Below, piece after piece: positions 2,490 to 50,438 of a stretch of DNA of 64,000 nucleotides (position 1 is its first letter; the number at the start of each line of letters is the position of its first letter). The notes under the pieces were generated by a model. The model worked only from the letters and a program-made list of their open reading frames with translations, was not told the DNA's origin and did no database searches. A program made the position numbers and the translations under genes. Origin of the DNA: Schmidtea nova (Eukaryota); assembly GCA_044892505.1 (NCBI GenBank), contig CM097883.1, positions 378,262,001 through 378,326,000 on the forward strand, read 5' to 3'.

Positions 2490-2495
2490 AATGCT

Positions 2496-2930
2496 CTATC
2501 GAAAATTATAACAAGGTTTACAAATTGGAGAATTTTGAAGTTTTTCTGTAAAAGGCGTTCGACCAACATTCAATTTGCGCCAATAATCACTGTCAGATTT
2601 CGATGAATTAAATTGTAGCTTTTCTTCAATTACTGAAGATCGCACTTTATCAGAAATGATTGAATCTCCCGTAGGCAACACATTATTTAAATCATTAATG
2701 AAAGAGCTCTCGATTTTATTGATTACATTCGCATTAGTTTCAGCATCACCAATCTTTGTTTTAGGAAATTTCAAATCCGTATTAGGATTTTCTTCATAAT
2801 AAGCAGATTTATCTAGGCTCTTTATAAAGGAAACTCTTAAGCTACTGGAAAATTCAGCATTTTCCCATAAACTATAATTTGAATCGCTATCATAATAAAA
2901 TTCGTGATCAGATTCCATTTCACCATTCAT
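2496..2930 (-). CDS. Unassigned 144-aa ORF, probably the 5' end of a captured host gene; same frame as 1932-2489, separated by one TAG
   Basis: ATG start, acidic/Ser-rich N-terminus. The 441-nt offset between 2930 and 2489 keeps the frame (CYNFR*SILSNPK). Confidence 0.45.
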   Translation of the reverse strand: MNGEMESDHEFYYDSDSNYSLWENAEFSSSLRVSFIKSLDKSAYYEENPNTDLKFPKTKIGDAETNANVINKIESSFINDLNNVLPTGDSIISDKVRSSVIEEKLQFNSSKSDSDYWRKLNVGRTPFTEKLQNSPICKPCYNFR

Positions 2931-3274
2931 ATTTAAATATAATGAACGTTTATACTAAATTTTCAACAAGTCTTTGTAGCGCTTTCGAAGAAATATATAT
3001 TTAAAAATTAAAGCACAAGTATTCCATAAATTCAATAAAAAACCCACAAAGCAGTTTTTTAAATTTCAAAACCACCCTCGAAAATCACAATTAAAAAAGC
3101 TCAGATAAACAACTTTTTAAAAAACTCCCCAGAAAAAATAAAATAGCGCAGTTAAACAACAACTCATTAAATCATATTTTTAATTATCGAATTCCAAAAC
3201 TTCCAATTGATTTTATCTATCTCTTTTAACCGCTCAGCGAAATTCGGTTCTCGCGTCTCTGTGCGCACCCCAAC

Positions 3275-5050: not shown

Positions 5051-6861
5051 ATGGATAAAAAAAGAAAAATTGATGATGAATCTAGAAATTTCCAAGAGAT
5101 CTGGAAAACTAAATACTCTTGTATTCTAGCAACAAAACCAAAAAATGCCGTTTGGTGTTTGGTATGTAAAGCTACGATTTCGGTACTAAAAGAATATAAT
5201 ATACGATGACATTATGAGACGCATCATAAAAGCCTGAATGCGCTTGCTCAAGATGAGCGAATTGAAAAACTGAATGAGCTTACAAATTCACTGTCGATGC
5301 AACAAAATATGTTCACCAGAATAAATGATGAGAATTTGGCTAGTGTTACAGTCGGATTTAAAATTTCTCACCGTATAGCTGCTTTGGGTAGACCATTTAA
5401 AGACGGCGAGTTTATCAAATGTTGCATTATTGATGCAGTTTCTACTATTCTTCCCGACAAAGTTCAGCTTTTTAAAAATATATCACTTTCAAGAAATACC
5501 ATAACAAGACGAATAGAACAAATTTCTGAAAATATTAATATACAACTTAAGGAGCGAATTCAAAAATTTCAATATTTTTCTATTGCTTTGGATGAGAGCA
5601 CAGATGTAGTAGATACATCGCAATTACTTATTTTTATAAGAGGTGTAGATTCCGATTTCAATGTTACAGAAGAGCTAGCGGCACTTTCTTCCTTATATGG
5701 ATCAACAACAGGACAAAATATATTTGATAGTATGGAAATGTGTTTTGATAAGCTGCAATTAAATTGGGATAAATTATTTAATGTCACTACAGATGGTGCG
5801 CGATGTATGACTGGAGATAATATTGGACTCAGAGGAAAAATTAATGAAAAAATGGTTTCCTTAGGGTTGAAAACCCCTTTATATATGCATTGTATTATAC
5901 ATCAATACAATTTATTGGCAAAAACCTTGAAGTTTGAAGATGTTTTGAAAACAGTAATTTCTACTGTTAATTTCATACGGAATAATAAACTTAACCATGG
6001 AGAATTTCGTAAATTTTTGGATGAAACTGATGCTGATTGGGATGATGTAATATATTTCGCTGAAGTTAAATGACTAAGTAAAGGTAAAGTTCTAACTAGG
6101 TTTTTTAACCTACGAAAAGAAATTATATCATTTTGTAATAAAAAAAAACATGTAATTCCTGAACTTGAAGATGAAGTTTGGTTGTGGAAACTTGCATTTC
6201 TAACGGATTTGGTTGATCAAATGAATAAATATATCAATAAAATGCAAGGAAATATGAAATTGGTCAGCGAACTTTATTCAAATGTACAGTGTTGCAACGA
6301 AATTAAAACTCCTTTATCGACAGGTATCTAAAAATAATTTCCAACATTTCAAATTATGTGAACATTTAAAAAAATCTGGTGAATTACAAACTAATACTCC
6401 AAATGAAATATTTTGTGATACAATAAAAATTTTTGATAAAAAATATGGAAGAAAGATTTTCGGATTTCGATAATATTTCATCTGAAATAACACTCTTTGA
6501 AAATTCTTTTACATATGACGTGGATGAAGCTGTTCCAGATTTGCAGCTTGAACTTTGTCAGTTGCAAAGTACCAACAACTTAAAAGTGTGGTTCATAGAA
6601 AAAACCTTACTGGAATTTTATAAAGGACTATCAAAGGAAGATTTTCCAAATCTAAGGATATTTGCATCCAGAATGTTCTCAAATTTTGGTAGCACATATA
6701 AAGTGGAACAAACATATTCAAAAATGAAGTATACAAAAATAATAATAGAAATAAATTATTAGATAGACATTTGCAGGACATTTTAAGAATTTCCACTTCC
6801 AAAATTGAACCAAAAATTACAGAATTGGCTTCATCACTTCAACATCATCCATCACATTGAT
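5051..6861 (+). pseudogene. hAT transposase pseudogene
   Basis: MDKKRKIDDESRNFQEIW, BED-like CLVC...HYETHH, FSIALDESTD, VTTDGA, HCIIHQ, C-terminal FGSTYKVEQTYS. In-frame stops (for example 6071-6073 at the conserved RW) and frameshifts. Confidence 0.9.
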
Positions 6862-9008: not shown

Positions 9009-9066
9009 TTAAGAAGAATACGATTTCACCTAATTAGTGAATCGGAAAGCCTTAATTGTGTTTTTA

Positions 9067-9309
9067 CAGGGTTATTCAAAACCATATATTCATTTGTTCA
9101 AAACTTTATGTTCATCTATTCAAAACTATATATTCATTTATAATGAATAAATGAATATATAGTTTTGAATAGATGAATATATAGTTTTGAATAAATGAAT
9201 ATATGGTTTTGAATAAATGAATATATGGTTTTGAATAAATGAATATATGGTTTTGAATAAATGAATATATGGTTTTGAATAAATGAATATATGGTTTTGA
9301 ATAACCCTG
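9067..9309. mobile_element. Foldback MITE (Tc1/mariner-type TA TSD) built from 22-bp tandem units
   Basis: TA|CAGGGTTATTCAAAACC...GGTTTTGAATAACCCTG|TA. The unit GAATAAATGAATATATGGTTTT occurs about 7 times on the right arm and about 3 times inverted on the left. Confidence 0.8.
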
Positions 9310-10400
9310 TAAACCTTTATTAGTAAAATCATAGTGAACCAACAGTTCGATTTGTTGTGTTCATCTGGGTTGCCCCAAACTATAAACTTACTTTTCCCCT
9401 CTGTAATATACAAAAACCGTGTGAGCATTAACACTACAGACTAGCTCTCGAGAAATCCTTCTGTGGTATTTAATATCATTTATTGTACCTACTTTTAATA
9501 TTCACTCATATATTTATTTTATAATTAAAACTTACCAACAAACACTTCCTTAATTGATTTTCTTTTATATTCATATTTATATTTATTATTACAATTTGGA
9601 GCCAGACCTGTGTTAAGGTCAAAATATCCTCAACATATTTGATTATTGTTCATAGCGATCTTAATAATGGGGTCAATTCTTCCATGACAGAAATTAAGAC
9701 TATTACTAATTCAGGTAGTTCCTAAAACGAATCAATAAAATTAAAGAAGATTTTGTTGAAATCATGTTAGTAATTCTTCATCTCTATCAAACCCTGATAA
9801 CTGTTATCTATTTCATCTCCTTATGCAACCTCTTATTGCTTCGCGCCACTATCTAAATTCAAGACGTGTTTATTTCCACCCTGAAACTTTGGGTTATCAT
9901 AAAATTAAAATAGAGTAAAAAATAAAGTAACAAATAAAGTCACAAATAAAGTAACTATTTAATTGTGTAAACTAAAATTTATTTTAAGTAAATTTATCAA
10001 AAAATTTCAAGTTTTTTAAAATTAATTTAAAATTAATTATTTATTAAAAAATAATTTAACTGATAAATTAATAAAAAATATATTAAAATTACAATAATTA
10101 CCATCTTTTACATATTATTCTTGTACAAAATTTTAAACTAATCCAAGCACCAACTACGAAATTCAGAGTAAAAATTTGAGTAACACACTAAACTTTGATG
10201 TGTTGTTAAAATTTATTATTGGGTGTTATTGATTGATAGAATTCACAACCATTAACAGTTTGCATGCCTTTTCTAACATTCACTGCCTTTTTGTGGTTAA
10301 CAATTTTTTTCTATCCTTTTTGTCTACTACATAATAAAAGGTGTTATTCATTGTTAGCACACTGATAACACACAGGTGAGTGTTTGAAATTTATATATTA

Positions 10401-14290: not shown

Positions 14291-15883
14291 TTAATTTTTA
14301 CCATGTGAAGAATGGTGTTGCTTTTGTGACACTAGAATTGCAATATTAGGATCAATATTTGATATGTTTATCCTTAATTCTGGTTCAACATCCAACCGAT
14401 TTCGATATTTATTCTTCATGTATAATAGCATCGAGAAAGCTCTTTCACATAAATACGTTGTACAAAATGGAAGTAAATATTTAATTGCTTTTTCAGCTAA
14501 TGTTGGATATACATTTTTAACTTTCAACCAAAACTCTTCAACAGTATGTTCATTAAAAACCAACCTGTAGGAGCTGTCGCATGATAATTCTGCAAGTTCA
14601 TCTTGCTCTGAAATTGTCAAATTTTGTACTTCGATATTTTTGCAACAAAATGGATCTCGAACCCATTCATGGTCTGATGTGGTAGAAGGAAAATAATTTC
14701 TAAAAGATTCTTTTAACATTTTTATATGTTCAATTAAAATCTGAATTTCTTCGACAGACAGTTTGTTATCAGAACTTTCTACAAATTCATGAAGTGTTGG
14801 AAAGGATTCAATAATTCCTTTTGTTAATCTGCTTATCCACAAATCCATTTTCTTCATTATTGCTTTTATTTTATCTTCTACTTTAAAAATATTTATTGAA
14901 GTACCTTGTAAACTTAAATTTAATTCATTTAGGTAAGAATGAATATCAGCCAAATAACCCACCTTAGCTAGCCAGGAAAAGTCAAAAAAACGATCTTTTA
15001 AATAGAAATTATCATTCTCCATCAAAAATAATCGTACTTCATCTCGCAGTTCAAAAATTCTATTTAATACCTTTCCACGAGACAACTAACGTACTTCTGC
15101 ATGAAGAAGAAGATGTTTATGCTGACTCCCCATTTCTTCGCATAAAACTTGAAAAAGACGAGAATTTAATGGACGCGCTTTAATAAAATTTACCACAGAT
15201 ACAATTTCATTTAAAGTAGTTTTTAAAATATCTGGCATTTTCTTTGCGACAAGTGCTTCGCGATGTATGCAACAATGTGTCCAAACTACATTGGGCGCTA
15301 CAGTTTTAACAAAATTCTTAAGACCCTTAATTGTTCCACTCATAGGTCGAGCACCGTCCGTGCTTATTCCAATACATTTTGACCACTCCATTTTATTGTT
15401 TGTTATAAAGTTGTTCAAGCAACGAAATATTTCAGCACCAGTTGTCCGTGTTGGAAGCAACTTGCAAAACAAAAAATCTTCATAAATCTTACCGCTAAAT
15501 TCATATCGAATGAATGAGAGCAAATTTGGGTTGCTCGCAATATCTGTAGTTTCATCCAGTTGCAATGAGTAAAATTGACTCTTCAAAACACGTTCAATCA
15601 ATTGGTCCTTAATATTTTGAGACTTCTCACTGATTCTATTTTTAACTGTGTCGTTTGAGAGCGAGATTAAGTTAAGGTCTTGGGCAGCTTTGCTTCCTAT
15701 CATTGTTGAGACTATTGCTTTAGCAGCTGGAAGAATTAAATTTTCAGCGATAGTGTGGGGTTTTCCAGATTTGGCTACTAGGAGAGACACTTGAAATGAT
15801 GCATGTACCGCTTGTTCATTATTACTTCCTGTGACGGTTTTTTTAATCAATTTTTGACTTGCTTGTAGTTCATGTAATTTCAT
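14291..15883 (-). pseudogene. Buster-type hAT transposase, 5' truncated, one in-frame stop
   Basis: Two in-frame ORFs (15086-15883, 14291-15085) separated by TAG at the conserved EVR(W)LSRG. Motifs KPHTIAENLILPAA, FYSLQLDETTD, ISTDGA, HCCIHREAL, PFCTTYLCERAFS. Confidence 0.92.
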
Positions 15884-16289
15884 AATTATACAGTTACCCC
15901 GGCCTCCACCCCCGCGCGTGTTGATGAAGCCGATGATAAGATTTATTTAAAGTTTTATTTTTAAATTCTTTGTGTTTTTTGTTGTTTTTCTAGTTAATAT
16001 TACTTTTTATTGTTGAGCGTTAAATTCTGATTATTTATATGTAAAAGATCTTGAATTTTAACCATTTTTAACCAAGTAAGGTTTTTTCATGTTAAATTTA
16101 CCATAGAAGACCAATTTTTCATGTTTTTACTTTTTGACCCTTTTTTGTTCGCCATTGAATACCAGTAGATTGGTATAAAAATTATTTAAATCCGAGCATT
16201 TTTGAAATTTTTGGGTAAAAATTTGAAAAAATTAATTTATTTAATATTTTTTGTAAAAAATTATGAAAAAATAAATAAAAATTATTAAA

Positions 16290-16745
16290 TTACAGTATTA
16301 CATCATAAATTACATAAGGGATTTCGTAAATAATGGCGTAATAATTACGTAATAATTACGTAATGATATATGATATTACGCAATTTTGTTGGTTGGGGTA
16401 GGGTAGCTGTATAATTATTACGTAATACATACAGGTTAGGGATAAATGGCTTGGCCCCGTGTCCTCACTATCCCCTACTACTAGTATTAGTAGTAGGGAT
16501 AGTGAGGACACGGGGCCAAGCCATTTATCCTTAAACTGTATGTATTACGTAATAATTATACAGTTGCCTACCCCCACCCACACCAAATTACGTAACATTA
16601 TATATTGTTACGTAAGCATTAAGTAGCCATTACATAATCACTATGTAATTATTACATCATTATCGCGACAATGTTTTGTAATATTACACAATTATTGCGT
16701 CATTATTACGTAATTATTACGTAACTAATGCGTCATTATGGTTAC
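16290..16745. repeat. Long near-perfect palindrome (foldback) inside the hAT 5' region
   Basis: The arm GGGATAAATGGCTTGGCCCCGTGTCCTCACTATCCC is mirrored around CTACTAGTATTAGTAG (~16483). The outer arms are rich in ATTACGTAAT repeats. Confidence 0.9.
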
Positions 16746-22979: not shown

Positions 22980-23139
22980 CAGTAAAATAAATTAATAAAA
23001 TCCATGAAGTTCATGAAGTTCATCATAATGACTAATTTTTCATTATTCTTTGCGATGTGTATATTGATCCTATACCTATTTAAACCTATTATGCAATATT
23101 TCAATTTTATGATTTTTACTGTTCTCCCATCTTCCAACA
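22980..23139 (-). mobile_element. Probable LTR start (TGTTGG) with a reading frame running in from upstream
   Basis: The ORF YYDRMVMLEDGRTVKIIKLKYCIIGLNRYRINIHIAK resembles the peptide at the start of the LTRs at 43199 and 60956. Purine-rich GACAGAATGGTAA precedes the TG. Confidence 0.45.
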
Positions 23140-23788
23140 TTACCATTCTGTCATAATATTTTAGAAAATGGAACAATCTCAGGAAAAGCTTTGCAGGAGA
23201 ATGAGTAGATTTAAGACTCGAAACGAAGATCTTTCGAAGAAAAATCAGGCGCTAACGTTACGTCTGAATAAATTTATTCAACAAAATAATTGTTATTAAG
23301 GTTTGGCACCGACAAGATGAAGATTCCCCATGAGAATTTTAGGGTCGAGGTTGTGATTTTTAACAATAATAACGCTACAAATAGAAAAAAAGTTCTTATT
23401 ATTTAAATATAGTTTTAAATAAATATTGTAAATAAATAATAACTACTGTTGGGCCCGCCAAATAGGCTAAAGCAACAACATTAAGACAAAAAGTTAAAAT
23501 AATAATAAAATAATAAACACAGAAATAGCAATAAAGGAAAATTAAAAATAGAAATAAAATAGTAAATAACATTTAATAAATTTCCAGTAAAAGGAAATTT
23601 TAAAAATAAAACGGTAACAAGCAGTAAAAGGGGGCCTGAAATAAGAAAATTAAGAATTAAATAAATTAATAGTACAAGTAATTGATTAATTACTTGAAAA
23701 ACCAGGACCACCCAGCGAGAAACCGGAAAAGGAAATAAAATAATATTTAGATTTAAATAAAATAGTAAAAACACTTTGATGGACGGTC

Positions 23789-23831
23789 TGATCCTGATTG
23801 GTCAATCTGACCAGTCGGATCAGTATAAATA
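23789..23831 (+). promoter_or_regulatory. CCAAT-containing palindrome plus TATA box of copy 1 (same in copy 2 at 31917-31959)
   Basis: TGATCCTGATTGGTCAATCTGACCAGTCGGATCA followed directly by GTATAAATA; nearly identical in both otherwise diverged copies. Confidence 0.65.
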
Positions 23832-24826
23832 CCGATCCAAAAATCACAACTTTACACTTTTTTTTCCATTTTTGCGAAACACTTGTTAACTGTTTAAAAC
23901 GCACGTTCTCAACTGTTACAGAAACCTCTTTCTAAAGCGTAAACCTAGGCGGAACGTATTTTTCGAAATATTCATTGAAAACTAGTGGAAGATATCATCT
24001 GAGGAGTAAATTTTTACTTTGTTTTATGTTGTAACTTTATATTGTTGTACCATGATTGTCATCTATAAATTATAATTTTATATCTAAATTTTTAATTTTT
24101 ATTATTCATATTTATGCATATAGTTATGCTTCCTAGGCTGCTCACGCGACAAGGGAGCCCGAGTCGTCGTTGTGGGGCTTCACGGTCTCACATGGCGGTT
24201 CCACCTTTTTATGAAGTCCTGAAACCATTTTATAATTATATTATTTTATCGACAAGTTTGCGTTCAATAATTTTCTGAATTTCGGTTGCACAGAGGACGT
24301 GGCGCGGAGAGCGGTAGGAAATGCTTAGAAAGTTGCCAGAAAGTGTGAGGCACCCGACAGACGTTATGTACTGACACCCAGGGGAATGGTAAAATCGAGT
24401 GATTTTTGATCTCAAGAGATCGAGTAGGGTGAGTAAAAACACAAAGTATCGAACGAAATCGATCCAACCGGAAATTTGCATCGGAGATCAAAGTACGGGA
24501 TCGACAGTTAAATATATCGAGACGGATAAAATTTGCATTAAACATCAGATGACATAATTAAAATCGTGTGAGATGGAAAATCTAAATAACATTATAAATA
24601 ACTTTATGCCGATCGCTGTACATAGCGCGGTAATCCAAATCAATATTATCCTGATCGCCGTACATGGCACAGGGAGAACTAAAATACATTATTCCGACCG
24701 TGGTATATCGCGGCGCTGACAAATTGATCTAATAATATTTTCGTTTTTCCTTATTTACGATCAGTTAACTGAAATAATTCTTGTATTGAATAAAACCTGT
24801 TTTACAATCCTTTAATGAAATAATAG

Positions 24827-25610
24827 ATGTCGGCAGCCGATCTAATGGAAAAATTGACCCAGATCCGGAATTCAGAAAAGGAGAGCATGGAAAGTAGATG
24901 GGCTACCCAACTCAAGGAGTTGCCCCCGCCGATTTTGCGTACCATTAACGCACAGGTATATAAGTGGCGGCGCAGATTTAATCGAATATGCCCGTTTTCC
25001 ATCTGGGTTCAAGGAAAAGATCGAGTCAACGCAGAGAGAACTCGAAAAGATGTGGCAAATCAGGAGAGCCCAGGATAAGGAGTTGGGCCTCCTCAAATAA
25101 CAATTGGCCAAGGCTGAAGCGCAAATCGCCTATTTACGTAAAAGCTGGTTTGCTCCGGCTCGGATGAAGGAGCAGATCGGGAAGACGGAGTGCGCCCAAC
25201 GGACAGCGGATGACTACAGAATGGAATGGGAAGCTACGAAAATCGAGCTTCGTAAGTGCCTGCATTCGGTAACAGCTTCCTACATCGAACGGGAGCTAAA
25301 GGACCAAATCCGACCGGTAACCTACCAGGAATGGACGGCGGAGAAAAAATTGGGAACTTCAATAGGCACGGACGTCGACGGTCTCATCGAAACCAGCAAC
25401 GAACCAACTCCATCAATCAACCTTACAACTCAAATCGTCAGTACCCATCAGAAACGCAAACGCATAGGACAGAAAAGGCGCCGACAAAGAAAGCTGTTCG
25501 CCCAAAAGCTGCAGAATCAAATCGATGCTCTGCACAAATTATCTGAGGAGGAATTACTAAACGAAGTATTTCCCCCAGAAGGAATTTTTAGCAGTGTAAT
25601 AGACAAATAA
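24827..25610 (+). pseudogene. Copy 1 fused ORF1-N/ORF2 (coiled-coil plus Arg-rich protein), with one frameshift (~25010) and one stop (25098-25100)
   Basis: The LPPPILRTINAQVYKWRRRFNRICPFSIW part matches copy 2 ORF1. The ESTQRELEKMW...AKAEAQIAYLRKSWFAPARMKEQ...KRKRIGQKRRRQRKLF part matches copy 2 ORF2. Confidence 0.8.
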
Positions 25611-26559
25611 ATGAGAGTTTTGAATTATTATCGTCCTTGTTATGTTCTCAATTTAGTTAAATAATAAATCTAAAGTAAATAATCATAAAGGCACCAAATT
25701 AGAAAACTGCATGAAAATTTTATTATAATAAAGATCAATTCTCCAGATTTTAGTGTGAATTACATAGCATACCATTAAAGCGTAAGTCCTTCTAACGGCA
25801 GCAATGAACCCGTAAACATAAATGGGGAGTAGTACTAGCGATAGTGCTCACCTGCCCATCATTGTTTAACCACCCTGCGCATTTCCAACTTGATTATCCA
25901 GGGAAATAATCAAGGGCGCTTGAGTGTATAGTTGCACATTTTATGCATGATCATGGATGAGGGATCCCTAGTCATTGTTAGAACATTTTTCATCTAACCC
26001 CTCCATGAACCCAGCACTACTATTAATAGATAAATAGTAATAATAGTAAATAATAACTAATAGATTAATATTAATAGTAATAAATATAATAATAAAGTTC
26101 ATTTCTGAACTTAGTAGATGATCATCACCACATTATTGCAAAATTTGATGAGGGTTGTACTAAGAAGAACTACGGGTGTTTAGCATACTATATATACTAA
26201 TTACAAATTAGTGACGAAAAACGATCAAACAATTTTAGAAGAAAACGAGCAAATATTATAAGATTATAGAGAGAAAACAATTCTATTAAGCATTTATTAC
26301 TGCTACCATGTTTGAAACATTTCTTAAACTAACTTTGGTAATCCTTTTATTTCTTTTTCATAATTTACCCTGAGTATTAGTATTATCTTTAATTATTATT
26401 TTACTCTTCAAATTTAAATAATTAGCAAGAGGAATTGTGGTATGAATAAGTATCAACCAAATTATGGGTTGATACTATCGCGTTAATTTTAAGCGTATCC
26501 CACAAATTTATTTATACCTTTTACCAGTCGGAGCTGTTGAGATTATTAGATTCAGCTTT

Positions 26560-27450
26560 CGCTCTTAAAAAAATCTAAGGAAAGTTTGAACAGCCGATAT
26601 CTTGCTTAGTAAAATTAAAGCAGCAGTTGTGCTATTTTTATATTTTTGGGAAACTATATTGTAAATCCAATTGTACTACTGAATAAATATTTAGCTTAAA
26701 CTAAAATTGTTTTCATTTTATATACATGCAACACATTATCATATTTATAGAGATTATAGTTTGGAGTCCAATAATTAATTTTTAACGCTAATGAAATATC
26801 ACTGAAATCTAGTAGAAAAGATTTGGTGTTTAAAAATGTTATGGCCATTTAATCACCGACAGTTCAAAGCACTTCTTGTAGAAATAAATACTGAATATAA
26901 TAACTTGTAGTACTGTAAAATTCGTTGGAAAGTTTTGACTAGATTCATGTTACTTTTAAAAATCAAAATATTCCAAATTGATAAAGGAAAGTCTACCGAC
27001 TTTATGGAAGATTTTCAGTACCTACGTGCTTTGACATTTTTAACGGATGTTACACATCTCAGATTTAGCAAACAACATATTAAACTTTCGGGAAAACGTA
27101 AATTGTTATATAAACAGCTAGAGCAATATAATTTTTGCCAAAGAAATGTTTCCCTTGCATGATATTGATTCCGGCCATAATTATACCTGCCATATTATTC
27201 GAATTCAAGAATATTTTGAGATTTTAGCCGTGAACAAAACTTGCTTAAGACATTTACGAACTCCTATAAATGAAGACGATCCATTTCAATTGAGATCGAA
27301 ATCGAAATCGAAATATCAGTAAGGCGATCAACTATATTTTTAAAGATGTATCAAGGATGAGCAGTTTCTCACCTTACATAGAAAGGCCGCGCTTTGTTCA
27401 ATCATTTACTAAACAACTTACATTTGCGAGAAAGCGTTCTACTTAATAAA
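26560..27450 (+). pseudogene. Highly degraded hAT transposase (central part)
   Basis: LNHRQFKALLVEINTEYNNL*YCKIRW and YLRALTFLTDVT are recognisable SPIN/GTF2IRD2-type motifs. Confidence 0.65.
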
Positions 27451-29329
27451 ACGTAACAGTCTCAATACAGAAATCGCTTGAATAATGATAACCCTAGCGC
27501 TGTATTGATGGAAGCAACCACAAAATTGAACCTAACATCGAAATGATTACTACCAGCATGCAGTATCAGAAATCTCACTAGAGTTGATACTAGGTTCCAT
27601 TGTAGTGTCCAAGTAGTGTAAGTAGGTAGTAACAGTTTATTTAAAATGTATATAATCACAGCTGTTTCCTGTGTCGTTCTCAGATCAACGTTTGACTACC
27701 CTTGTAGGTAGCCCTCAAATTTTATTTTAAAAATATTTTCTACTCACGAAGAGTCAGATCCTGTTCTCTTGGACCAGTCCGGCCACAGTGGCGCAGATTA
27801 TTTTCCTCCTGTGTTTTAATTTTTCTGCCTTCTAGTCACGATCCTGAAATCAACGACTTAATTCGATCAGGGGAATAAAGTTTATTCGGATTTGTTTTGG
27901 GACATCAGGGATTTTTGACTCTGTTGGTAGGATGTTTAGATTGTATAGATGTAACCTGTTGAGTGTATTATACTGTTGTATTATGGTTTGTGTAATTGTT
28001 GTTTCATGTTTGGGTATCTGTTTGATCAGTAGATCAGCAGGAGACAATGGTACCTCTGTATCGTATGTATATCGGGACATCGGAGATATCTAGGATATCA
28101 AAGACATCAGGGGATTTGGGATTTGGATGGAAGGTTGTTTGAATTTGTATTGGGATACACAAGTCTTGTATGTATACCGGGGACATCGGAGTTATTTTTC
28201 TATTGTTGGGTTAGTACTAGGTATGTCTCCAGAATCAGATCAAGTACTGTTGGATCTGGTGTGACAACATAATATCCTGGACAGAGGTATTTGTGCGAAT
28301 TTCGTGCGTTAATTAATATTTCTCTCATCTCTGTCAGGAATATTTAGTGTTTCATGATTTTTTTGACTCTTTAGGCATATAAACGGGTACCAGAAGCGAG
28401 GTGTTGGAATGATGCATCTGTATTGTCATCTTGCCGTAGCCCAAGTCTCAATTTAATATTTTCAATTTAGTATAAGGGTGTAAGTATATCATTTTTGGAT
28501 AGGGTTCTACATTGGTGGTAGTATTATAAAGGTTTTTTTCGTGGCTCATCTTCTTTTATTTTAATTTATATTTTATATTCATCATTAAGTTTTACTATTT
28601 CTTCATATTTTCATGTTCTTATCTCATCAAATTCAATAATATCATTTCTGTATAAGATTGGGAACTACGAGAGTATGTTTCCACTAATTACCTGCATTAT
28701 GTCTAGTTTGTTGGGATATTTGTTATTTTTTCAGGTTTATTAAAAATTCATGTTATTGATAGATGGTGGCTATATCTATTTTTAAGTGGATTATCTGTGT
28801 CCAAGTTAATTCAGTGGTAGTAAGAGGGACCAAAAAATTGGAAAGTGGTGTATTGAGTATTTTATTGTTTCAATATACATCTACGGAGTCTTTGTCGACA
28901 TTGCCAATGCTGTCATCATTACTGTCATCAAAACAGTCTTTACATGAGCTGTTGTTGTCATCTTCTTTGTTATTGTTTTCATTGTTGTTGTCATCATCTG
29001 AGCTGTTATATCGATTGTCTACAACATTTTTTATAAATTTATTAAATTATTCGATAACAATGACGGCAATATCTTCTTTTAGATTTTTTTATCTGCTCAG
29101 TATAAATTTGTGTTATAAGTGAAACGTATGCAAGAATTTGGGTGGAATTTCACTGAGTAGTCTATTGCTGCCATAGATTTTCCTTGTTTGCAGTTTTTAA
29201 TGAATCAATACCCATCTACTGAGCCTACATCAACATTATAAACGCCGCTGTTTAATCAAAAGTTTTTCCTAATAAGTAGCGAGAGTGACCTTTCTGACCG
29301 GTTTCGAGTATTTGCATTTTACCGAGCCG

Positions 29330-30117
29330 CCATGCCATAAAGTAAGGCGTTTTCCAATCGATTTTTGGTACATCTCGCTAGCTGTTATATTAAATTCTCA
29401 CAAAGATTTAAAGATTTTAAAAGAATTGAGAAATTATTCAAAATTGTGAATTATTATGACTCATTTGATATGCAGGGTTTCGATAATAATCTTCTGAATT
29501 GGATGGAATCAGAAAATTTAGAAATGCAAATTATTGATCTGCAATCTAATCTCATTTGGGTAAAATTTGTAAATATGAGGAAACATATCGAAAAATTTGA
29601 ATGTTTCCTATTATCACATGATGGAATCAGAATGCCGCATTGAAAACTCAATTCTAGAAGTGTGGATTAGTATGCCATATGCCTTTGGTTCTGTTAAGAA
29701 ATTAGCAATCTCATTGTTAACCATTTTCTCTTCCACTTACTCTTGTGAAAGTCTTTTCTGTATTAAATCATGTACATTCAAAAATGAGGAACAAGTTGAC
29801 AGAAGAAGATTCGGCAGCATTCATTAGCTTGCAATCGACAACATACCAGCTTGATATAAAAGATCTTGCAGATAATATGAAACAAAAACTTCTAATAAAA
29901 AATAACATTAAACTTATTATAACATTAATTTTTATATTTTAATTTTGTAGTGTTTCTTAATATTCATTAAATATAATTACATGAATTTTAATAATGCAAT
30001 ATGACAATATGTTTTTTATATATAATAAATATGGGACATAGGTACTGGCACGGTAAGAATTAAAAAAAAATTTTATCCAAATTTGGAACAGCGAACAAAT
30101 CTTATTTGCCATCCCTA
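29330..30117 (+). mobile_element. hAT 3' remnant (dimerisation domain plus right TIR)
   Basis: VKKLAISLLTIFSSTYSCESLFS...MRNKLTE; ends TTATTTGCCATCCCTA. Confidence 0.75.
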
Positions 30118-30289
30118 TTCTATCAGATGAAATTTTGTTTAATGATTAGTTTTCTTTAAGCGAATAATCTCAGATGAGGATGAATACGAGCGCGCAATGA
30201 ACGAGACTACGAAGTAACATTATGTCAATTCATTTTGGGAAAATGTGTAATGTGTGATATAATTCAGATAAAATACACTACTATAATTT

Positions 30290-30720
30290 GACTATCAATA
30301 ATATAACAACCTTGCCATTGGTCAAGCCACTGTTCCCTAACATCAACGTATGGAATGAACTGATCATGAGGGTGTGGCCTAACCTTAGATAGAAATATGG
30401 GCTGGTCGATTGATGGGCCCCAAACGAACAGCAATCTACTTAGGCTACTTTCATCAGTAAAGCTCATGGGCCGGATTGATTTCAAAAGGTATGGTGGATT
30501 GTTGGCCGTCAACATAACCTTGACGTTGTTATGGCTCACATTAACAACTCAACATACAAAACATTAGTTTAACCATCCTGTTGCCCGCCACAATGTAACG
30601 CTGGAAATGCAACAAATGGGTGGATGTCCGAAAACAGTGAGCGTCGAAAAATTCGAAACTATGACTGAGCGAACATCTCCTGGGTTCAAGAGCTACTGAT
30701 GGAAGGCTACGCGCCCAATT
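30290..30720 (+). pseudogene. Degraded ORF of unknown function inside LTR-like element X
   Basis: LPLVKPLFP...VWWIVGRQHNLDVVMAHINNSTYKTL. Homologous halves recur at 46778-46960 and 43694-43930. Confidence 0.55.
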
Positions 30721-30981
30721 TGCCCCTTAACAGAAATTATTGTTATTTATGTTCGATTATACGTAGGTGAAACTCATTGCTGGAGTTCTGCGTTCAATAT
30801 TTATATTATATTCATTTCAATTGCCATTAACTACTTTGATTATAATACTTGATAACAAAGAAAAATCAATTTACATGTGAGAAAAGTATAATTTAATACA
30901 TTCAATAAAATTACAAATAAACAATGAATTTACATGAAGAAAATAATAAAACTAAATCACAATGTTACGAGTCAAGTATTG

Positions 30982-31502
30982 TTAAGTCAATGGATTCCAT
31001 AGGGGATTTTCAAATCTGCCCAGTACACGTGCTTCCTGCCTCCGTTTTCGCCGTGTTCTGACTCCTTTGCTAGGCTTTCAGCGTTTCGGGTTTTGGAATG
31101 ACAGGCGGTTCCTCTCCTGCCCTTACCGGAAATAATTCCAGTGCTGGAAAGGCCATTTTGGGCAGGATGGCCAAGATTATGCCGCTCTCTGTCAGCAGCT
31201 TCGCTATTGTTGCATCCCTTTCTCAGGCCATCATATTACAGGCCCTTAACTGTATGGCATCTTCGGCGACCTGCAGCCATAATAGTTGATTTTGTTATAT
31301 GAGCCTATTCACATTTTCTTTGCTCGTCCATGTCGCCTCAATTACGCGACCTGAATTTTTCCATCCTGATGGTCATTATTTTCAATGCCTCTGCATTGAC
31401 CTACTTTTCCGCCTCCAGATTTGCGAGACGGTTATTGACGCGCCGGTTGTGTCGTGCGGTTTAGGCGGCTCTTTGTAATAATTCGTCTATTTTCTGTTCC
31501 AT
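30982..31502 (-). pseudogene. Degraded coiled-coil ORF ending in an Arg-rich motif (element X)
   Basis: MEQKIDELLQRAA*TARHNRRVNNRLANLEAEK...GVRTRRKRRQEARVLGRFENPLWNPLT*. TTTCAG lies 2 nt before the ATG. Several stops and frameshifts. Confidence 0.6.
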
Positions 31503-32967
31503 TGCTGAAATTATCGAAAAACATTTAAAACATATCTATCCTAACAATTTATCAGACTACGACATTCAATTGTTGGGCCCACCAAATGGTCTAAAAAGAC
31601 AAAAATAATGTAATAATTTAAACAAAAAATACAAATAATAAATACAAAAAAACATTGGAAAAACCTAAATTAAAAATCAAAATAAAATAATAAATAATAA
31701 TAACTAAATTTCCAGCAAAGGAAAAAAAATCAAATTGACACGGGAACGAGCAGCATCGGGGTCTGAAATAAGAAAATTACAAATAAAATCAAATAAGAGT
31801 ACAATTAATTAGTTAATTACTTGAAAAAATCAGGACCACCCAGCGAGAAACCTGAACCGGAAATTTAAAATGGTTTATATTAAAATAAAATAACAAAATT
31901 ACTTTGATGGACGGCCTGATCCTGATTGGTCAATCTGACCAATTGGATCAGTATAAATACCGATCCAAAAATCATGAAAGGAGACATAAAAATTTTGATT
32001 ACCGAACTGATCTATAACAATCGATTCAGTCACATCAACTTTGTTACGATAAATTTTCGAAATAATTTTTGGGAACGCATCAAACTTGGATCTTAGAGAG
32101 TAATTTTGTTTTTATTGTTATTAAAATAATTTTTATTACATGTTTCTCATGATTCCCATTTGATTTTGTTTTAATATAGTTTATTATGATTAATGAATTG
32201 GATTATTCTATTATTTTATATTATAATAAATACACTTCCTCAGTAGCTCACGCTGCGAGGGAGTAAGCCGTAAGTGTGGGATTTCACCTTTCCACAAGAT
32301 GGTGAGCGAAGTTTATATTGACAGTTTTATTTTATTTAATTGAGTCATATCAGAGGTTTACCTTAAAGTAGAGTTGTGCATGGGGCCAGGGTTGTGCTTG
32401 CAAACAGGGTCTAGTGTTGGTTAGGTAGCGTTCGATCAAACAGGAGATGTCCAAGAATAATTAAAATATCATTGATTATATGACTTAACAAATCAACTAA
32501 ATCGGTTTCACCGTATGTACGCTATGTCGAATCCACACAACTGCAGCTGATCTAGACAAATAGATGCATCCGGACACACCGAGGAGATTCCGACATTTTA
32601 ATGAAATTTTTGACTAGGGTATAAATAGTAACATAATCGAATTTAAATCACAGATTGGATAAATAAAACAGTAACCTGATCGCTGTAAATAGCGCAGGCA
32701 ATAATATTTGGATTTCTTATAAACGTATCCCGATCGCTGTATATAGCGACGGTGTTAAGCGAATAGGTTTAGGAAATTTTTCTCATTCCTTCTCTTCATT
32801 TTTTTTTGGGGTTTAAATGATCAACCTCCTCACTACAAGACCAATGAATCCTTGAATTAAAATTTATCAATATATAATTTTTTTTTGAGGGGAGCATACT
32901 TCAGCGGATTTCACTGCGATTAGCGAATTCGTCACATAAATTTTTATTGGAATCATTCTTATCTCAG

Positions 32968-33459
32968 ATGAAACCAACAATAGTGGAAGAATTTCTGGCA
33001 ATCCAACGACATGCGGCCCGGGCTGATGACCAGCCGATCCGGATGCAGCAGAAGATATTGAAATCGCTTCCACAAGAACTCCTGAGAACGCTAAATGCGT
33101 TGATGTACAAGTGGAGACGAGAACTGGGGAAAAAATGTCCGTTTTCCATTTGGACCGGTGGATCGGACACTATCATATATCGAGGAGGCCCCGGATGGGA
33201 AATTCCGGACCCCGAAACGACAGCTCAGTTCATCATAGTTTTGACGGACATCGCAGCCAATCCAACGACAGTAATCCATTGGGGATATATCTCACCCCGC
33301 ATGCTGCTTCAATTTGGTTTGATCCCGAACCACCTACCGAAAACGGGCCAAGGACGCCCCAAACTGAACTGCTCAATGGCTTGCATCCGACAAGATCCTG
33401 TCAATCACGGGTTGCACATTACCCCCGTTCACGGCCTCCAAGCGAAGCGTTTTCGCTAA
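32968..33459 (+). CDS. Copy 2 ORF1, 163 aa from the first ATG, unknown function
   Basis: Open, GC-rich frame. ATG directly follows TTCTTATCTCAG (splice-acceptor-like). The N-terminal part is conserved in copy 1. Confidence 0.75.
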   Translation: MKPTIVEEFLAIQRHAARADDQPIRMQQKILKSLPQELLRTLNALMYKWRRELGKKCPFSIWTGGSDTIIYRGGPGWEIPDPETTAQFIIVLTDIAANPTTVIHWGYISPRMLLQFGLIPNHLPKTGQGRPKLNCSMACIRQDPVNHGLHITPVHGLQAKRFR

Positions 33460-33648
33460 CAACGTTATTCACAATACTATGAATTAATATGTTTCATCAA
33501 TTAAATTGTGTTGACCTGTCTTTTTGTTTGTTATTAGTTGAATTTCGATCCATTTATGGATTTAATTACCCAAATTTTTCCACTCGACGGATAGTATTAG
33601 CCGTTGGTAGTGTAATTTCAGTATCATAAAATAGGTTTATTATTTAGT

Positions 33649-34239
33649 ATGACGGAAACCAGCCAACAGCGGGAATTGGATAAGGCGTGGAGAATCCGCG
33701 GAGCATTAGAAAAGGAGTTAAATCAAGAAAAAGCATTACGGGCTAAGGCAGAAGCTCAGATTCAGTATTTACGAACCAGCTGGTTCGCCCCAGCCCGTAT
33801 GAAGGAACAAATGAGTCGAACGGAAAGGGCTCAAAAGACAGCTGACGATTATCGCACCCAATGGGAAGCAACAAAAATTGAGTTGCGCCGATGTCTCCAT
33901 TCGGTGACGACTTCTTTCATCGAGTTCGAATTGAGATCACAGATCCGACCCATCACCTACCAGAAATGGGTAGGAGAACAGAAAGTGGCCTGCTCGGTCA
34001 GTACCGACACCGATGGTCTCGAGGTAACAACAGTACAAAGTCCGATGGAATCCACCGTTGCACCAAATCCCGTCGGAAAAACGAACAAGAGAAAGCAAAT
34101 CGGTTCCAAGCGCCGTCGCCAAAGGAAGCTGTTCTCTCAGCAGCTGCAGGCACAAGTGACCACTATGGCAGAAATGTCGGAAGCCGAGTGGTTATCAGAG
34201 ATATTCCCTCCCGAAGAAATTTTCAAGGAGTTTTTGTAG
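33649..34239 (+). CDS. Copy 2 ORF2, 196 aa, coiled-coil protein with a C-terminal basic KRKQIGSKRRRQRKLF motif
   Basis: Intact ORF; homologous to 25104-25610 with predominantly synonymous differences. Confidence 0.85.
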   Translation: MTETSQQRELDKAWRIRGALEKELNQEKALRAKAEAQIQYLRTSWFAPARMKEQMSRTERAQKTADDYRTQWEATKIELRRCLHSVTTSFIEFELRSQIRPITYQKWVGEQKVACSVSTDTDGLEVTTVQSPMESTVAPNPVGKTNKRKQIGSKRRRQRKLFSQQLQAQVTTMAEMSEAEWLSEIFPPEEIFKEFL

Positions 34240-34369
34240 CAGATAAAATCATAACATGATGTCAGCTTTTGGTGTTGATTAAATTTTTGCTTGTTTTGTT
34301 TTTTTTTTGTTATTTCCTATGTATTTCCTTCGGTTACACAGTTCATAATAATTAAATTTAAATTACATG

Positions 34370-36713
34370 TGTTGGGTTATTATTCTGTAAGATCGGTTTA
34401 CTGACCTGACTCCTCGTGCTCTTTAATTATCGAATTCAATGAACCCAACACAGAACAATCTTTTTATTCACGCTCAACACAAATTACAATTTTTGTTACA
34501 CACACGTTTGATTAATTTACGCTTTATTTCGGATTCGGATTTGACTCTTTAATTCACAGGATGCTTTCTTACTTTGTCTGTTTAATCTCTTCAGGATCTT
34601 TCTCTATTCGTTTTCAAAGTCTTTGTAATAATCTCTTTTTAACTGTCCACTCGTCGGCCCCGTGCTCTGTTTTGCGTTGCCTTTTATAGTTCTAGCACAT
34701 AGCAATTAAGTTTTATCGATACCTAAAAGTTAACCAATATCGGGTTTAATTGTTTGGCTAACAAATTATTTTAATTATCCTCGGATGGATTTTTCCTAAT
34801 TGCCCCGACTTTGATCTCTCGGGTCTCTTTGCGCTCGGGCTTCCCTCATCGCTCGGGTTTCCCATTGCCTCGGGCTTCCCATTGTCTCGGGTTTCCCATT
34901 GAGCGATTAATTAATTTTAATTAGTTTGTTTTTATTAAATAACTTTCTCTGGGGACCCCTTACTAACTTTCTATTATTAGTTTTGGGTTCGTCTTTTGAT
35001 TCGGCATTCAACCATACCCATTTCCCCCAATGAATATTAATTTAAAATTTTTGATAACTTTTAATTAATTTTTGAACTTTTATTTATTTTACTTTTGTGA
35101 TTTTTATATAAACCCCAACATATCTCACCCCTTTATTTAAGATTCGTCCTCGAATCCGTATTTTGATTTGTTATTTTATTAAAATGGTAGAGTCTACTCA
35201 ATACTATAAATGTGCATAATTATAATTATTAGTAAAAGTTTGGACTATAAATTAGATGGTAGAGTACTCTCAATACCAACTATAATAGAATACTCAAATA
35301 TACTAATATTGATTTCATATCATAATAGAGACACTAATGAATAATAATAAATGACGATATTACTATTATTATATTTATACCTACCCATACTAATATTAAT
35401 AACGGCCTAATAGTGCTACAAGAAATAACAAATTATTGATTTTACTAATAAAGTTTTAGAACAATTATGATGATCATAACAGCAATACTGCTAGTAATAA
35501 TAATAATTTTACTTAAAATTCTATAATAACAATGATAATTCTTAATAAAGCTTTTGGTTTTAATAATCCTAACAACAACATTAACAATAATAATGATAAT
35601 AATAGTAATAATAATAATAATAAAAGGATTACATTTATTTTTAACAATATTTTAATAATACTTTTATTAATATTCTCTTTTTTTTTTCCAACTACAACAA
35701 TAATTATTATTTCAATAATTATAATAATAAAAATAATAATAATAGTTAATTAATAAATCAGCTTTTCTGATCATATTTATTGAATATCATTATAACCATC
35801 ATGATAGATGCAGAAAATCTAGTTTAAATAAATTAATGTTTATTCCTAAAATTGGCATTGCCGATAATTATAATTTTGAAAATTTAATCGGTGTTTGCCG
35901 ATTATTGATAAGACTGTTATTTTGAAAATCGGCCTTGCCGATTATCTCTATTTATGCCTTTGTCGGCATAACTCAATTAAATTTCAGATGGCAATTTTGC
36001 CAGGGATGGAATTAGCCAATCACATGGTAGTTATTCGTGATTGGCCACCTCCTTCTCTTCTTAAGGGCTCGTTATTTTTTTTATTTCCTTTTATTCAAAT
36101 GGAATTAAAATATCGATCGATGTATTAAATATTAAATATTAAATATCAATATCAATAATTTAAAATTGTTAATATTTTAGTAAAACCTTTTGTTGTCTAA
36201 ACCAACGAAGCACATCTCCACTCCGACCAAGAAAACACAATCAAGCCATCACACAACGACCAAACAACCAACTCCTTGTGCCCCCCAGCTAATCGATGAC
36301 CTCAAATCAAATTCCAACTTGCGATCCCGTCAACAACTACTGCCAACAAAGCCTCCCACACTACTTACCGGTCACGAAACGGCCCTAAATCACCACTCGG
36401 CCTCCAATGTTTGGAAATTTGGTATCTAATTAAAAATTTCTAAAAAATTTTTTTTTTTTGCTTTCCTTATACTACGAATAATAATAATATCAGCCATAAT
36501 NNNNNNNNNNNNNNNNNNNNNNNNNNNNNNNNNNNNNNNNNNNNNNNNNNNNNNNNNNNNNNNNNNNNNNNNNNNNNNNNNNNNNNNNNNNNNNNNNNNN
36601 NNNNNNNNNNNNNNNNNNNNNNNNNNNNNNNNNNNNNNNNNNNNNNNNNNNNTAACCATAATAATAATGACCACAATCATAACAATAATAATAACCGTAA
36701 TAATAATATTAAC

Positions 36714-36744
<31 letters not shown>

Positions 36745-37774
36745 GTAATGATAATAATAACTGCTATTACCCCCAATAATAACAATCTTAATAATACTAT
36801 CAATAATCACCACAAGGATGACTATAGATCAAAAATTTTCATACAAACAACATACATTTGATAAAGGCTATGCAGAAATATTGTGTTATTATTTATACAA
36901 AAACCATTGATGATAAAAAGATCAAATGTGAAAAAAAGATAATTTTGATTCATAATATTAATAGTAAATAATAAATAATACACCACAATGATACATTATC
37001 ATCCTGACTATACCATTATCCTGATTATAATATTATTTTGACAGTAATGATTATTAATACTAACAATAATACTTATAGTTGAAAGAAATAATAATGATAA
37101 TAACAATAATAACAATATTCACAACAACNNNNNNNNNNNNNNNNNNNNNNNNNNNNNNNNNNNNNNNNNNNNNNNNNNNNNNNNNNNNNNNNNNNNNNNN
37201 NNNNNNNNNNNNNNNNNNNNNNNNNNNNNNNNNNNNNNNNNNNNNNNNNNNNNNNNNNNNNNNNNNNNNNNNNNNNNNNNNNNNNNNNNNNNNNNNNNNN
37301 NNNNNNNNNNNNNNNNNNNNNNNNNNNNNNNNNNNNNNNNNNNNNNNNNNNNNNNNNNNNNNNNNNNNNNNNNNNNNNNNNNNNNNNNNNNNNNNNNNNN
37401 ACAATAATGATAACAACAATAACAATAACAATAACAGTAACAATAATAACAATAATAATAATAATAATAACAATAATATTAATAAGGTTTTTACTAATAA
37501 TACTGGTGATGCTAGTAATGTTAATGCTCTCATATTGTATGCGGGTTTCCCATTGAGCGATTAATTAATTTTAATTAGTTTGTTTTTATTAAATAACTTT
37601 CTCTGGGGACCCCTTACTAACTTTCTATTATTAGTTTTGGGTTCGTCTTTTGATTCGGCATTCAACCATACCCATTTCCCCCAATGAATATTAATTTTAA
37701 ATTTTTGATAACTTTTAATTAATTTTTGAACTTTTATTTATTTTACTTTTGTGATTTTTATATTAACCCCAACA
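34370..37774 (-). mobile_element. Non-autonomous LTR retroelement nested in copy 2
   Basis: TSD CATG on both sides. Complete 3' LTR at 34370-35120 (TGTTGGGG...CCCAACA on minus; TATAAAA near 34685; AATAAA near 34465) preceded by PPT AAAGGGGTGAGATA. Partial near-identical 5' LTR at 37541-37774. The interior is (AAT)n-rich with gaps and no visible gag/pol. Confidence 0.8.
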
Positions 37775-38123
37775 CATGTCACACAACGAAAGGAGTAGCG
37801 TTAAAAATTTAAATATTATCGAATTCGTAGTTTCGTTTTGTTTTTTGATAAATACATAAAATCACACGTACACCGAATAACAACAATTGCGTAAGTCCTT
37901 CTACGGCCGCGTGAACCCGTAAACATAAAGGGGGAGTAGTCCTAGCAATAGTGCTCACCTGCCCCTCATTGTTTAACCACCCTGCGCATCACCAACTTGG
38001 TAATCGGGGGAAATAATCAAGGGCGCTCGAGTGTAACTTACGACTATTTGTGCATGATCATGGATGGGAGATCCCTAGCAATCATTGGAATTTTTACTAC
38101 CCCGTCCATGAACCCAGCACAAT

Positions 38124-49920: not shown

Positions 49921-50438
49921 TAGTAAATTTTTGTATCCTCAATTCAAAAATTCAAATCCTCAAAATCGAAAATAAATTGTTCTCAACAAACCCAAATTTC
50001 CAGCCAAGAAAATCCTAAATCCAACTTGGATTAATTAAACAAAAACCAAATCAACCATAAATCCACAATAATCAATTAAAATCGAGCCCAAATTCCAACT
50101 CGATTACTAGACGAAGAAAAATAGCACACGCGCACACAGACGCAAAAGAAACATAACTGAAAAATGCGCACGGGCGCGAGACAATTTTTAACTACTCGAG
50201 CACACAGACGCCATAGAAAATTAGAATCAGTGCGCACCCTGACGCTACCAAAATTACTCAATTAACCGCGCACACAAATCCACAACAAACTAACCCAACA
50301 CATTCGAACACTTGTTGTTTTAAATTGTTTTTGACGTGATTTCTATCTGAAAATAATCGTTCGTATATTTTAAACTTTATTTTTTTATTTCAACTATTAT
50401 TTATTTTAATTTATATCAATAAAATATTTTTTAGACGA

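Follow-up and report, generated by a model that had tools for sequence, protein, structure and literature searches.

A covarying array of bulged RNA hairpins in the LTRs of Burro-type giant Ty3/gypsy elements of Schmidtea nova, with a possible Rev/Rex-like role

Why should a stretch of planarian DNA carry, in two copies, a short series of bulged hairpins upstream of open reading frames? The window analyzed here comprises 64,000 nucleotides of Schmidtea nova (contig CM097883.1, positions 378,262,001 to 378,326,000, forward strand). An initial annotation proposed that the hairpins are a multimerized RNA response element, plausibly bound by an adjoining Arg-rich ORF in a Tat/TAR- or Rev/RRE-like circuit. 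We asked what element carries the hairpins, whether they are a selected RNA structure, and what they may do.

Two solo LTRs of a giant retrotransposon

Judging by their ends and their relatives in the host genome, both copies are decayed solo LTRs (~3 kb) of a Burro-type giant Ty3/gypsy element.

23447 to 26016, + strand: solo LTR copy 1 (family 1, Burro-type giant Ty3/gypsy), TG...CA ends, 4-bp target site duplication (TSD) CTAC
31571 to 38119, + strand: solo LTR copy 2 (family 2), made up of 31571-34369 and 37775-38119, TSD CAAT

Copy 1 has an internal deletion of ~0.5 kb, and copy 2 is split by an insert at 34370-37774. The insert, which has TG...CA ends, a TSD (CATG), AAT microsatellites, and a 241-nt near-identical repeat at 34888-35128 and 37542-37782, is probably a non-autonomous LTR element. 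Since the window copies are solo LTRs, each with its own TSD, the two ORFs described below both sit within the LTR.

With the second of these ORFs (ORF B of copy 2) as a query, a first look at the host genome returned 9,453 candidates; 150 were scored, and many of these were paired ~26 kb apart. One pair consists of 3,076-nt direct repeats 26.5 kb apart that match at 99.7% identity; it has a 4-bp TSD, TG...CA ends, and a primer-binding-site-like motif that we take to correspond to tRNA-Pro. Such a motif lies 6 nt from the 5' LTR end. Just before position 2878 of L034, the 3' LTR is preceded by a short GC palindrome after a G run, not by a plain polypurine tract. Pfam searches between the LTRs detected RING, the Gag zinc knuckle (CCHC), a Monjiviricetes fusion protein, PR, RT, RH, IN, ankyrin, and TRAF/MATH domains, and LTR pairs flanking the Burro-type domain set are 99 to 100% identical. 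In a family-3 element, Gag, fusion, protease, and ankyrin domains scored and RT did not within the stretch scanned. The two features by which we recognize the Burro type are both present: paired multi-kilobase LTRs around an interior of >20 kb, and Gag, fusion, and PR-RT-RH-IN domains with ankyrin, TRAF/MATH, and RING.

Burro elements were described from dugesiid planarians as giant Ty3/gypsy elements with the same domain set (PMC6431247), and the likeness extends to a length of ~24 to 30 kb, Gag with CCHC, a fusion protein between gag and pol, PR-RT-RH-IN, and ankyrin, TRAF/MATH, and RING accessory ORFs. In contrast to the elements studied here, that description, in the portion of its text available, names no LTR-internal genes, no acceptor per accessory ORF, and no RNA element (PMC6431247). 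BURRO1 is expressed (PMC8532177; the accessible part of this text contains no LTR anatomy), and Burro1 is reported, at second hand, to show activity in the stem cells of planarians and to aid regeneration (PMC13465017). As far as titles and the opening lines of abstracts go, the literature on Burro, on Rev-like retrotransposon proteins, and on Pumilio, hairpins, and retrotransposons holds no account of Burro LTR genes or of the hairpin motif. The RNA motif family is real and apparently new, and it belongs to an LTR cassette resembling those of complex retroviruses; the ORFs of this cassette may have an earlier description. The gains are a covarying RNA motif of ~24 nt, two unannotated LTR genes under selection, and two named candidate binders.

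Hairpins of the array and their geometry

The five bulged hairpins of the initial annotation were all recovered in their places, three in copy 1 and two in copy 2.

24608 to 24631, + strand: copy 1, hairpin 1, class I (2-nt bulge, 4 bp, GUACAU loop), contains UGUANAUA
24650 to 24673, + strand: copy 1, hairpin 2, class I, C-G closing pair, one C·A mismatch (GGCA)
24695 to 24715, + strand: copy 1, hairpin 3, class II (single bulged A, 5 bp, U·G wobble)
32675 to 32698, + strand: copy 2, class I, GUAAAU loop, contains UGUANAUA
32730 to 32752, + strand: copy 2, class II, GUAUAU loop, contains UGUANAUA

The third hairpin of copy 1, previously seen as a looser version of its neighbors, is present but belongs to a separate class with a bulged A and 5 bp, as does the second hairpin of copy 2; we presume that this geometry resembles the iron-responsive element. 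Pairing in hairpin 2 of copy 1 is interrupted by the C·A mismatch, although most relatives read GGCG and pair; GGCA recurs in one other fetched copy.

Arrays were then compared across the host genome, with L001, L016, L021, L037, and L097-L105 (duplicate genomic places), L180, and also L182 (wrong strand) excluded from the counts. The 102 arrays contain two (38 arrays), three (58 arrays), or four (6 arrays) hairpins, joined by variable, AU-rich linkers with a start-to-start spacing of mostly 37 to 65 nt. Class II is the last hairpin in 95/102 arrays, where the pair added to the single bulged A is U-A (58 cases), C-G (36 cases), or U·G (1 case), and every non-terminal hairpin (172/172) has a 2-nt bulge and 4 bp. 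Constant throughout the array are the loop and the bulged A. The bulge opens with A in 251/254 cases, in a scan that favored A but allowed mismatches; at the free loop position G is the rarest base (16/254), and GUAAAU and GUAGAU loops together account for 47/254. A few recurrent loop variants and degenerate outer hairpins retain only bulge and stem, so the two determinants may be separable.

Evidence for a selected RNA structure

A degenerate motif pattern matched the host genome 6,007 times, compared with 194 times for the reversed pattern. With the stems fixed and the loop left free (4 to 8 nt), 3,333 matches were found against 38 in the control, and among the first 100 of the 3,333, inspected by eye, 90 had GTANAT and 99 a 6-nt loop. 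Exclusion of the commonest stem still left 737 matches (18 in the control) and revealed further families.

Hairpins picked without any pairing requirement had all four upper-stem positions paired in 248 of 274 cases. In a set of 99 distinct 24-mers, 346 of 396 cells were Watson-Crick pairs (shuffle mean, 244.5; shuffle maximum, 263; 0 of 2,000 shuffles reaching the observed value), although these covariation statistics ignore kinship among copies and some loci were found by the motif pattern, so that the counts overstate independence. True partners paired in 94% of cases and slid partners in 19 to 48%, and G·U pairs on the plus strand numbered 53 against 11 A·C. Every upper-stem pair covaries: pair 1 occurs as C-G, U-A, and G-C, pair 2 as G-C, C-G, and A-U, pair 3 as C-G, U·G, and U-A, and pair 4 as U-A, C-G, and G-C. 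The lower stems also covary. The earlier remark that stems vary yet keep pairing, including a U-G pair valid on the plus strand, is confirmed, and the proposal of a multimerized plus-strand RNA element gains true covariation and a wobble bias in its favor.

Folding energy is weak, with z-scores of -1.2 to -2.6 for single hairpins and of -0.5 and -1.8 for whole arrays; in the minimum-energy fold of copy 2, two hairpins pair with each other. Because array folding is no better than that of shuffles, the structural case rests on comparison, not on energy. The weak z-scores of the whole arrays, together with the near-palindromic stems, are what one would expect of double-stranded DNA binding sites or of neutral local duplications. 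Compensatory changes at all pairs, a bulge on one side only, the plus-strand wobble bias (53 versus 11), and the fixed order of the classes speak against both and make them very improbable. That the array is a selected plus-strand RNA structure we hold to be close to certain, and that it binds a protein, highly probable.

Rfam covariance models gave no credible match in positions 23000-35500 of the window or in the LTRs of five loci; one snoRNA match (E 4.9) was discarded as chance. Outside the LTR, L106:100-181 holds a long AT-rich inverted repeat that scores just below the mir-31 gathering threshold on both strands and is more likely a MITE than a microRNA.

Two genes within the LTR

Downstream of the array, the LTR contains two ORFs, which we call ORF A and ORF B.

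24827 to 25016, + strand: copy 1, 5' part of ORF A, directly after an AG; the 3' part is deleted
25017 to 25610, + strand: copy 1, remnant of ORF B; start lost by deletion, in-frame stop near 25100, Arg-rich motif at 25449-25499
32968 to 33459, + strand: copy 2, ORF A, 163 aa, AG directly before the ATG
33649 to 34239, + strand: copy 2, ORF B, 196 aa, Arg-rich motif at 34087-34134

The "ORF1" of copy 1 is short because of the ~0.5-kb deletion. Both genes are under purifying selection, with dN/dS values of 0.08 to 0.13 for ORF B (four pairs; three more saturated) and of 0.15 to 0.23 for ORF A (three pairs; one saturated). The predicted fold of ORF B comprises two long helices, a linker, and a helix over the Arg-rich motif (mean pLDDT, 72; pTM, 0.31), followed by an acidic/hydrophobic C-terminal tail. 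By sequence, the Arg-rich motif is found in all six LTR families. Eight ORF B copies contain zero to three Cys residues, and nuclear export signal (NES) patterns matched five of the eight, with no match in families 1 and 2 or in one of the family-3 copies. It could be that the Arg-rich stretch is a nuclear localization signal only.

Neither protein has recognizable relatives in the collections searched. For ORF A, 0 of 19 candidates held up, with none in Pfam, the Atlas, or solved structures. For ORF B, a profile found 0 among 1.84 billion representatives, Pfam gave no match, and a search of viral folds returned 0 at E ≤ 0.001; Atlas matches, all under 0.9, were taken as coiled-coil noise. Family 3 keeps the array and ORF B, and no ORF A match was found in its 29 loci or in whole-element stretches. 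ORF A is therefore unlikely to be the array binder, since this family keeps the array without it, even though supply in trans is possible.

Families 5 and 6 (L160-L169 and L170-L179) are two further LTR families that have ORF B relatives and upstream ORFs of their own. Their upstream ORFs matched the ORF A profile weakly, with E values of 5e-4 to 5e-3 in family 6 and of 0.006 to 8 in family 5, which does no more than suggest homology. The family-6 leader has a hairpin with a GGAAA pentaloop, and single hairpins with AAGUR pentaloops occur in some subfamilies of family 5.

Position of the array within the LTR

The LTR upstream of the ORFs, and its 3' end, contain the following conserved features.

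23797 to 23831, + strand: copy 1, CCAAT and TATA boxes (putative promoter)
31925 to 31959, + strand: copy 2, CCAAT and TATA boxes
24004 to 24012, + strand: copy 1, putative splice-donor-like site, then a U-rich stretch; a weaker match in this copy
32098 to 32106, + strand: copy 2, putative donor-like site
24127 to 24203, + strand: copy 1, Module U, a conserved double hairpin (first loop CUCACG)
32233 to 32306, + strand: copy 2, Module U
25780 to 26016, + strand: copy 1, conserved 3' LTR block opening with a perfect donor-like GTAAGT

All six families have the CCAAT-TATA pair, ~360 to 390 nt from the LTR start wherever that start could be placed, and all six have a donor-like site with a U-rich tract ~95 to 185 nt after the TATA box (AAG|GTA or GTAAGT, 94 to 182 nt after it, in other families). 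Module U, which lies ~100 to 130 nt after the donor-like site, folds with z-scores of -2.3 to -5.2 on the plus strand and of -0.6 to +0.2 on the minus strand (four copies from families 1, 2, and 4). It has no Rfam match and is a candidate packaging signal; similar double hairpins are present in the leaders of families 5 and 6 (L160-L179).

In 49 of 53 rows, the conserved TATA box precedes the array by 676 to 1,228 nt, the transcription start being presumed from that box; the other four rows are a second TATA-like word (three) and a second match within the same locus (one). In 58 of 64 measurable arrays, its end lies 98 to 238 nt before the AG that directly precedes the first LTR ORF. A YAG occurs 0 to 4 nt before the ATG in 38/40 ORF A and 69/72 ORF B sequences, compared with 1,476 of 12,172 background ATGs (12%). 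The array is flanked by a donor-like site on one side and by the acceptor-like AG ahead of the LTR ORFs on the other, which makes it probably intronic; the order of these signals points to splicing that is probably organized as in complex retroviruses, the array belonging to the first intron. The AG before the ATG could instead mark spliced-leader trans-splicing rather than cis-splicing. Of 73 joints at L031:2700-9000 (contigs from four runs of unspecified kind), none of the 15 listed had GT..AG ends or fell at predicted splices, which counts neither for nor against the scheme.

Internal accessory ORFs (RING, TRAF/MATH, and coiled-coil) likewise start 0 to 4 nt after a YAG at L031:6225-6758, L033:7970-9346, L034:935-2020, and L106:4100-4594, which suggests one acceptor per gene. 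PolyA-like hexamers followed by U-rich tracts occur just after ORF B as candidate polyA signals, and the array may also be part of every 3' UTR. The 3' LTR block of copy 1 is probably U5. A perfect donor-like GTAAGT opens this block in families 1 to 3 (in the window, at 25780-25787 and 37889-37896), and by analogy it might suppress the 5'-LTR polyA site through U1, as happens in HIV and foamy viruses.

In family 3 (L106, L109, L112, and L114), a second array lies 500 to 760 nt upstream of the main one; it has three 12-bp hairpins with UGNAAU loops and covarying stems and is followed by a structured region of ~125 nt (plus-strand z, -2.7 to -5.2). Of the 102 arrays of the main type, 47 have a second TATA-like word no more than 120 nt upstream. 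As a general internal promoter that would put the array in a TAR-like position, this word was rejected, being present in only these 47 arrays and at inconsistent distances (15 or 55 nt).

Candidate functions of the array

An element of 25 to 30 kb must balance many accessory mRNAs against its genome. In our preferred reading, to which we assign a probability of roughly 0.4, the array would provide several binding sites for the helical, Arg-rich ORF B protein and would control the splicing or export of unspliced RNA, by analogy with Rev and Rex. The array would sit in a long leader intron, between the promoter-near donor and the acceptor opening the first LTR gene, and only intron-retaining RNA would carry it. 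Each hairpin would offer two recognition points, the bulged A and the GUANAU loop, and several copies would allow cooperative binding. ORF B, made from a spliced LTR mRNA, would oligomerize through its long helices and read the RNA with its helical Arg-rich motif; a rising level of the protein would favor unspliced genomic RNA over spliced accessory mRNAs, through obstruction of the nearby acceptor, through export, or through a combination of the two. In this scheme we infer the transcription start, the splicing, the binding, the binder, and the outcome. Were ORF B to bind the array, the many solo LTRs would be potential trans-acting genes.

Rev and Rex are known to shift output from spliced to unspliced RNA (PMC10746203), and it is their response elements that the array would work most like. 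HIV Rev/RRE, HTLV Rex/RxRE, and HERV-K Rec/RcRE likewise combine a multi-site structured RNA with a small, element-encoded Arg-rich protein; in the planarian element the protein has likely oligomerizing helices and probably comes from a spliced mRNA. Here, in contrast, separate short hairpins on AU-rich linkers replace one branched fold, the gene and the RNA element both lie in the LTR, a clear export signal and homology are absent, and the binding is putative. A precedent comes from CERV of C. elegans Cer1, a gypsy element whose own Rev-like regulator is needed for the export of unspliced RNA (PMC10309623) and which thus shares with the present element the Ty3/gypsy lineage and a regulator of its own. 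A whole-word search of the available CERV text gave 0 matches for "response element" or "stem-loop" (PMC10309623). Binding of the array by ORF B would make the latter a Rev-like regulator of a gypsy element whose RNA target is identified; the CERV text, as far as available, names no such target (PMC10309623).

The main result against ORF B as the binder comes from families 5 and 6, where ORF B and its Arg-rich motif are present but the array was found in 0 of 60 loci. A search of these families by repeated 10- to 11-mers and by geometry yielded no equivalent hairpin array, only single hairpins; they may use another element. In the ORF B tree, the array-bearing families form one side with weak support (78/91), and so the array looks like a gain on one branch, on that weak support. 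The link drawn initially between the array and the Arg-rich ORF next to it is strengthened by purifying selection on the ORF and by the conserved Arg-rich helix, but weakened by two distant ORF B families that lack the array. In a Rev/Rex-like system, protein and RNA element would be expected always to occur together; here they do not, and for this reason, together with the absence of a clear export signal, we do not file the array as a member. Of the two circuits proposed initially, the Rev/RRE-like one is nevertheless the better, if putative, reading, while membership in TAR/Tat fails on position, bulge, and protein.

TAR is a hairpin at the 5' end of the transcript, and Tat has a Cys-rich activation domain. 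As in this pair, the hairpins of the array are bulged, have a short upper stem under a 6-nt loop, and lie near a gene for an Arg-rich protein; the array differs in lying 676 to 1,228 nt after the TATA box rather than at the 5' end, in its multiple copies and different loop, in a bulge that starts with A, and in an ORF B without a Cys-rich domain, and a TAR/Tat identity was rejected. The arginine sandwich of TAR uses a bulge pyrimidine as a cap and a base triple (PMC6189040). A resemblance to phage lambda, which also counts toward the preferred reading, is seen in the loop and in one stem type: loop positions 1 to 5 agree with GNRNA, the free base falling where the extruded base would be, and the stem type is that of lambda boxB (record J02459). 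The GNRNA fold of boxB is read by lambda N with one base extruded (PMC12027372, PMC12550061). An identical upper-stem type, a GNRNA-fitting loop, and a helical Arg-rich peptide are thus common to both systems, but the six-nucleotide loop, the added bulge, and the eukaryotic setting set ours apart, and GNRNA leaves the fixed loop positions 2 and 6 unexplained, for which the Pumilio element accounts; the resemblance is at most convergence. Elongation control or antitermination in the manner of Tat/TAR or N/boxB, in which ORF B on the nascent array would let polymerase pass the 5'-LTR polyA signal into the 22- to 27-kb interior, draws on this boxB-like stem and loop, on the heptapeptide RRRERRA that family-5 ORF B has in common with lambda N, on the acidic/hydrophobic tail, and on the polyA-like hexamers and U-rich tracts after ORF B. 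We consider it improbable: the array lies ~700 to 1,200 nt from the conserved TATA box, the second TATA-like word occurs in only 47/102 arrays and at inconsistent distances, family 5 with the N-like peptide has no array, and the N-like region did not return N when compared with solved structures. Even less probable is a packaging or dimerization signal read by Gag and kept only in unspliced RNA. Repeated hairpins downstream of the donor are typical of retroviral packaging signals, and GUAC and UAUA loops are self-complementary, but the GUAAAU and GUAGAU loops (47/254) are not palindromic, Module U or a similar double hairpin takes the usual position of the packaging signal in all six families, and young LTR pairs of families 5 and 6 lack the array. 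Kissing-loop dimerization was rejected, two loop types being non-palindromic.

The initial annotation missed, besides the solo-LTR identity and the deletion that shortened ORF1, a Pumilio element that overlaps the loop. Both the free position and the five fixed bases of the loop agree with the Pumilio element (PMC11602169), and the loop with its closing pair forms a perfect UGUANAUA in 177/261 geometry-selected hairpins; 91/97 arrays have at least one perfect element, and 17/17 plus-strand copies of UGUANAUA in eight LTRs fall inside hairpins. The scarcity of G at the free position (16/254) agrees with this. Host Pumilio would then be the functional ligand, with the hairpin masking or metering UGUANAUA and the array RNA being repressed, destabilized, or acting as a sponge unless another protein locked the stems. 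The host has a single PUF gene, of the Pumilio type (C3:71133416-71148676 in the host genome; L195-L200), whose eight repeats all carry canonical recognition residues under what we take to be the canonical PUF code. The UGUANAUA repeats of NORAD are likewise arrayed with AU-rich linkers (PMC11602169); here, however, the element lies within a conserved, GC-rich bulged stem, and positions 1 and 8 are missing from about one hairpin in four. The title of a study cited in PMC3868585 calls a planarian Pumilio essential for stem cells. Against Pumilio as the ligand, C-G or G-C closing pairs in 61/261 hairpins drop positions 1 and 8 and keep GUANAU, and 942 C-G/G-C-closed hairpins are found genome-wide (control, 0); since these lose the two positions yet keep the loop, Pumilio alone cannot explain the array. 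The invariant bulged A is left unexplained, and positions 1 and 8 are predicted to be paired (unpaired probability ≤ 0.05 in element-bearing hairpins). Pumilio moreover acts mainly on 3' UTRs. Pumilio as the functional ligand is the strongest rival of the preferred reading, although we regard it as unlikely, and a combination of the two proteins as less likely again: in such a two-key switch, Pumilio would repress intron-retaining Burro RNA in stem cells until ORF B, with its N/Rev-like helix and made also from many solo LTRs, locked the hairpins that hide the Pumilio elements and freed the genomic RNA. If so, a Rev-like circuit would have evolved independently in a Ty3/gypsy lineage and been wired to a stem-cell regulator. 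What probability remains goes to another host protein as the ligand of the array.

Other features of the window

Two adjacent frames at 1932-2954 (- strand), presumably resembling pieces of the NEDD8-activating enzyme regulatory subunit, have no Pfam match at E 0.001. DNA transposon remnants lie at 14291-15946 (- strand), 5210-6073 (+ strand), 50340-50750 (+ strand), 56921-58219 (- strand), and 58666-59733 (+ strand); Pfam identified a hAT dimerization domain (14294-15085) and MULE and Tc5/DDE_1 transposases, and the remaining pieces are hAT-like by eye only. Two further features are MITE-like: a 22-nt tandem array with an inverted arm at 9063-9326 and an 85-nt inverted repeat with a 21-nt spacer at 16390-16580.
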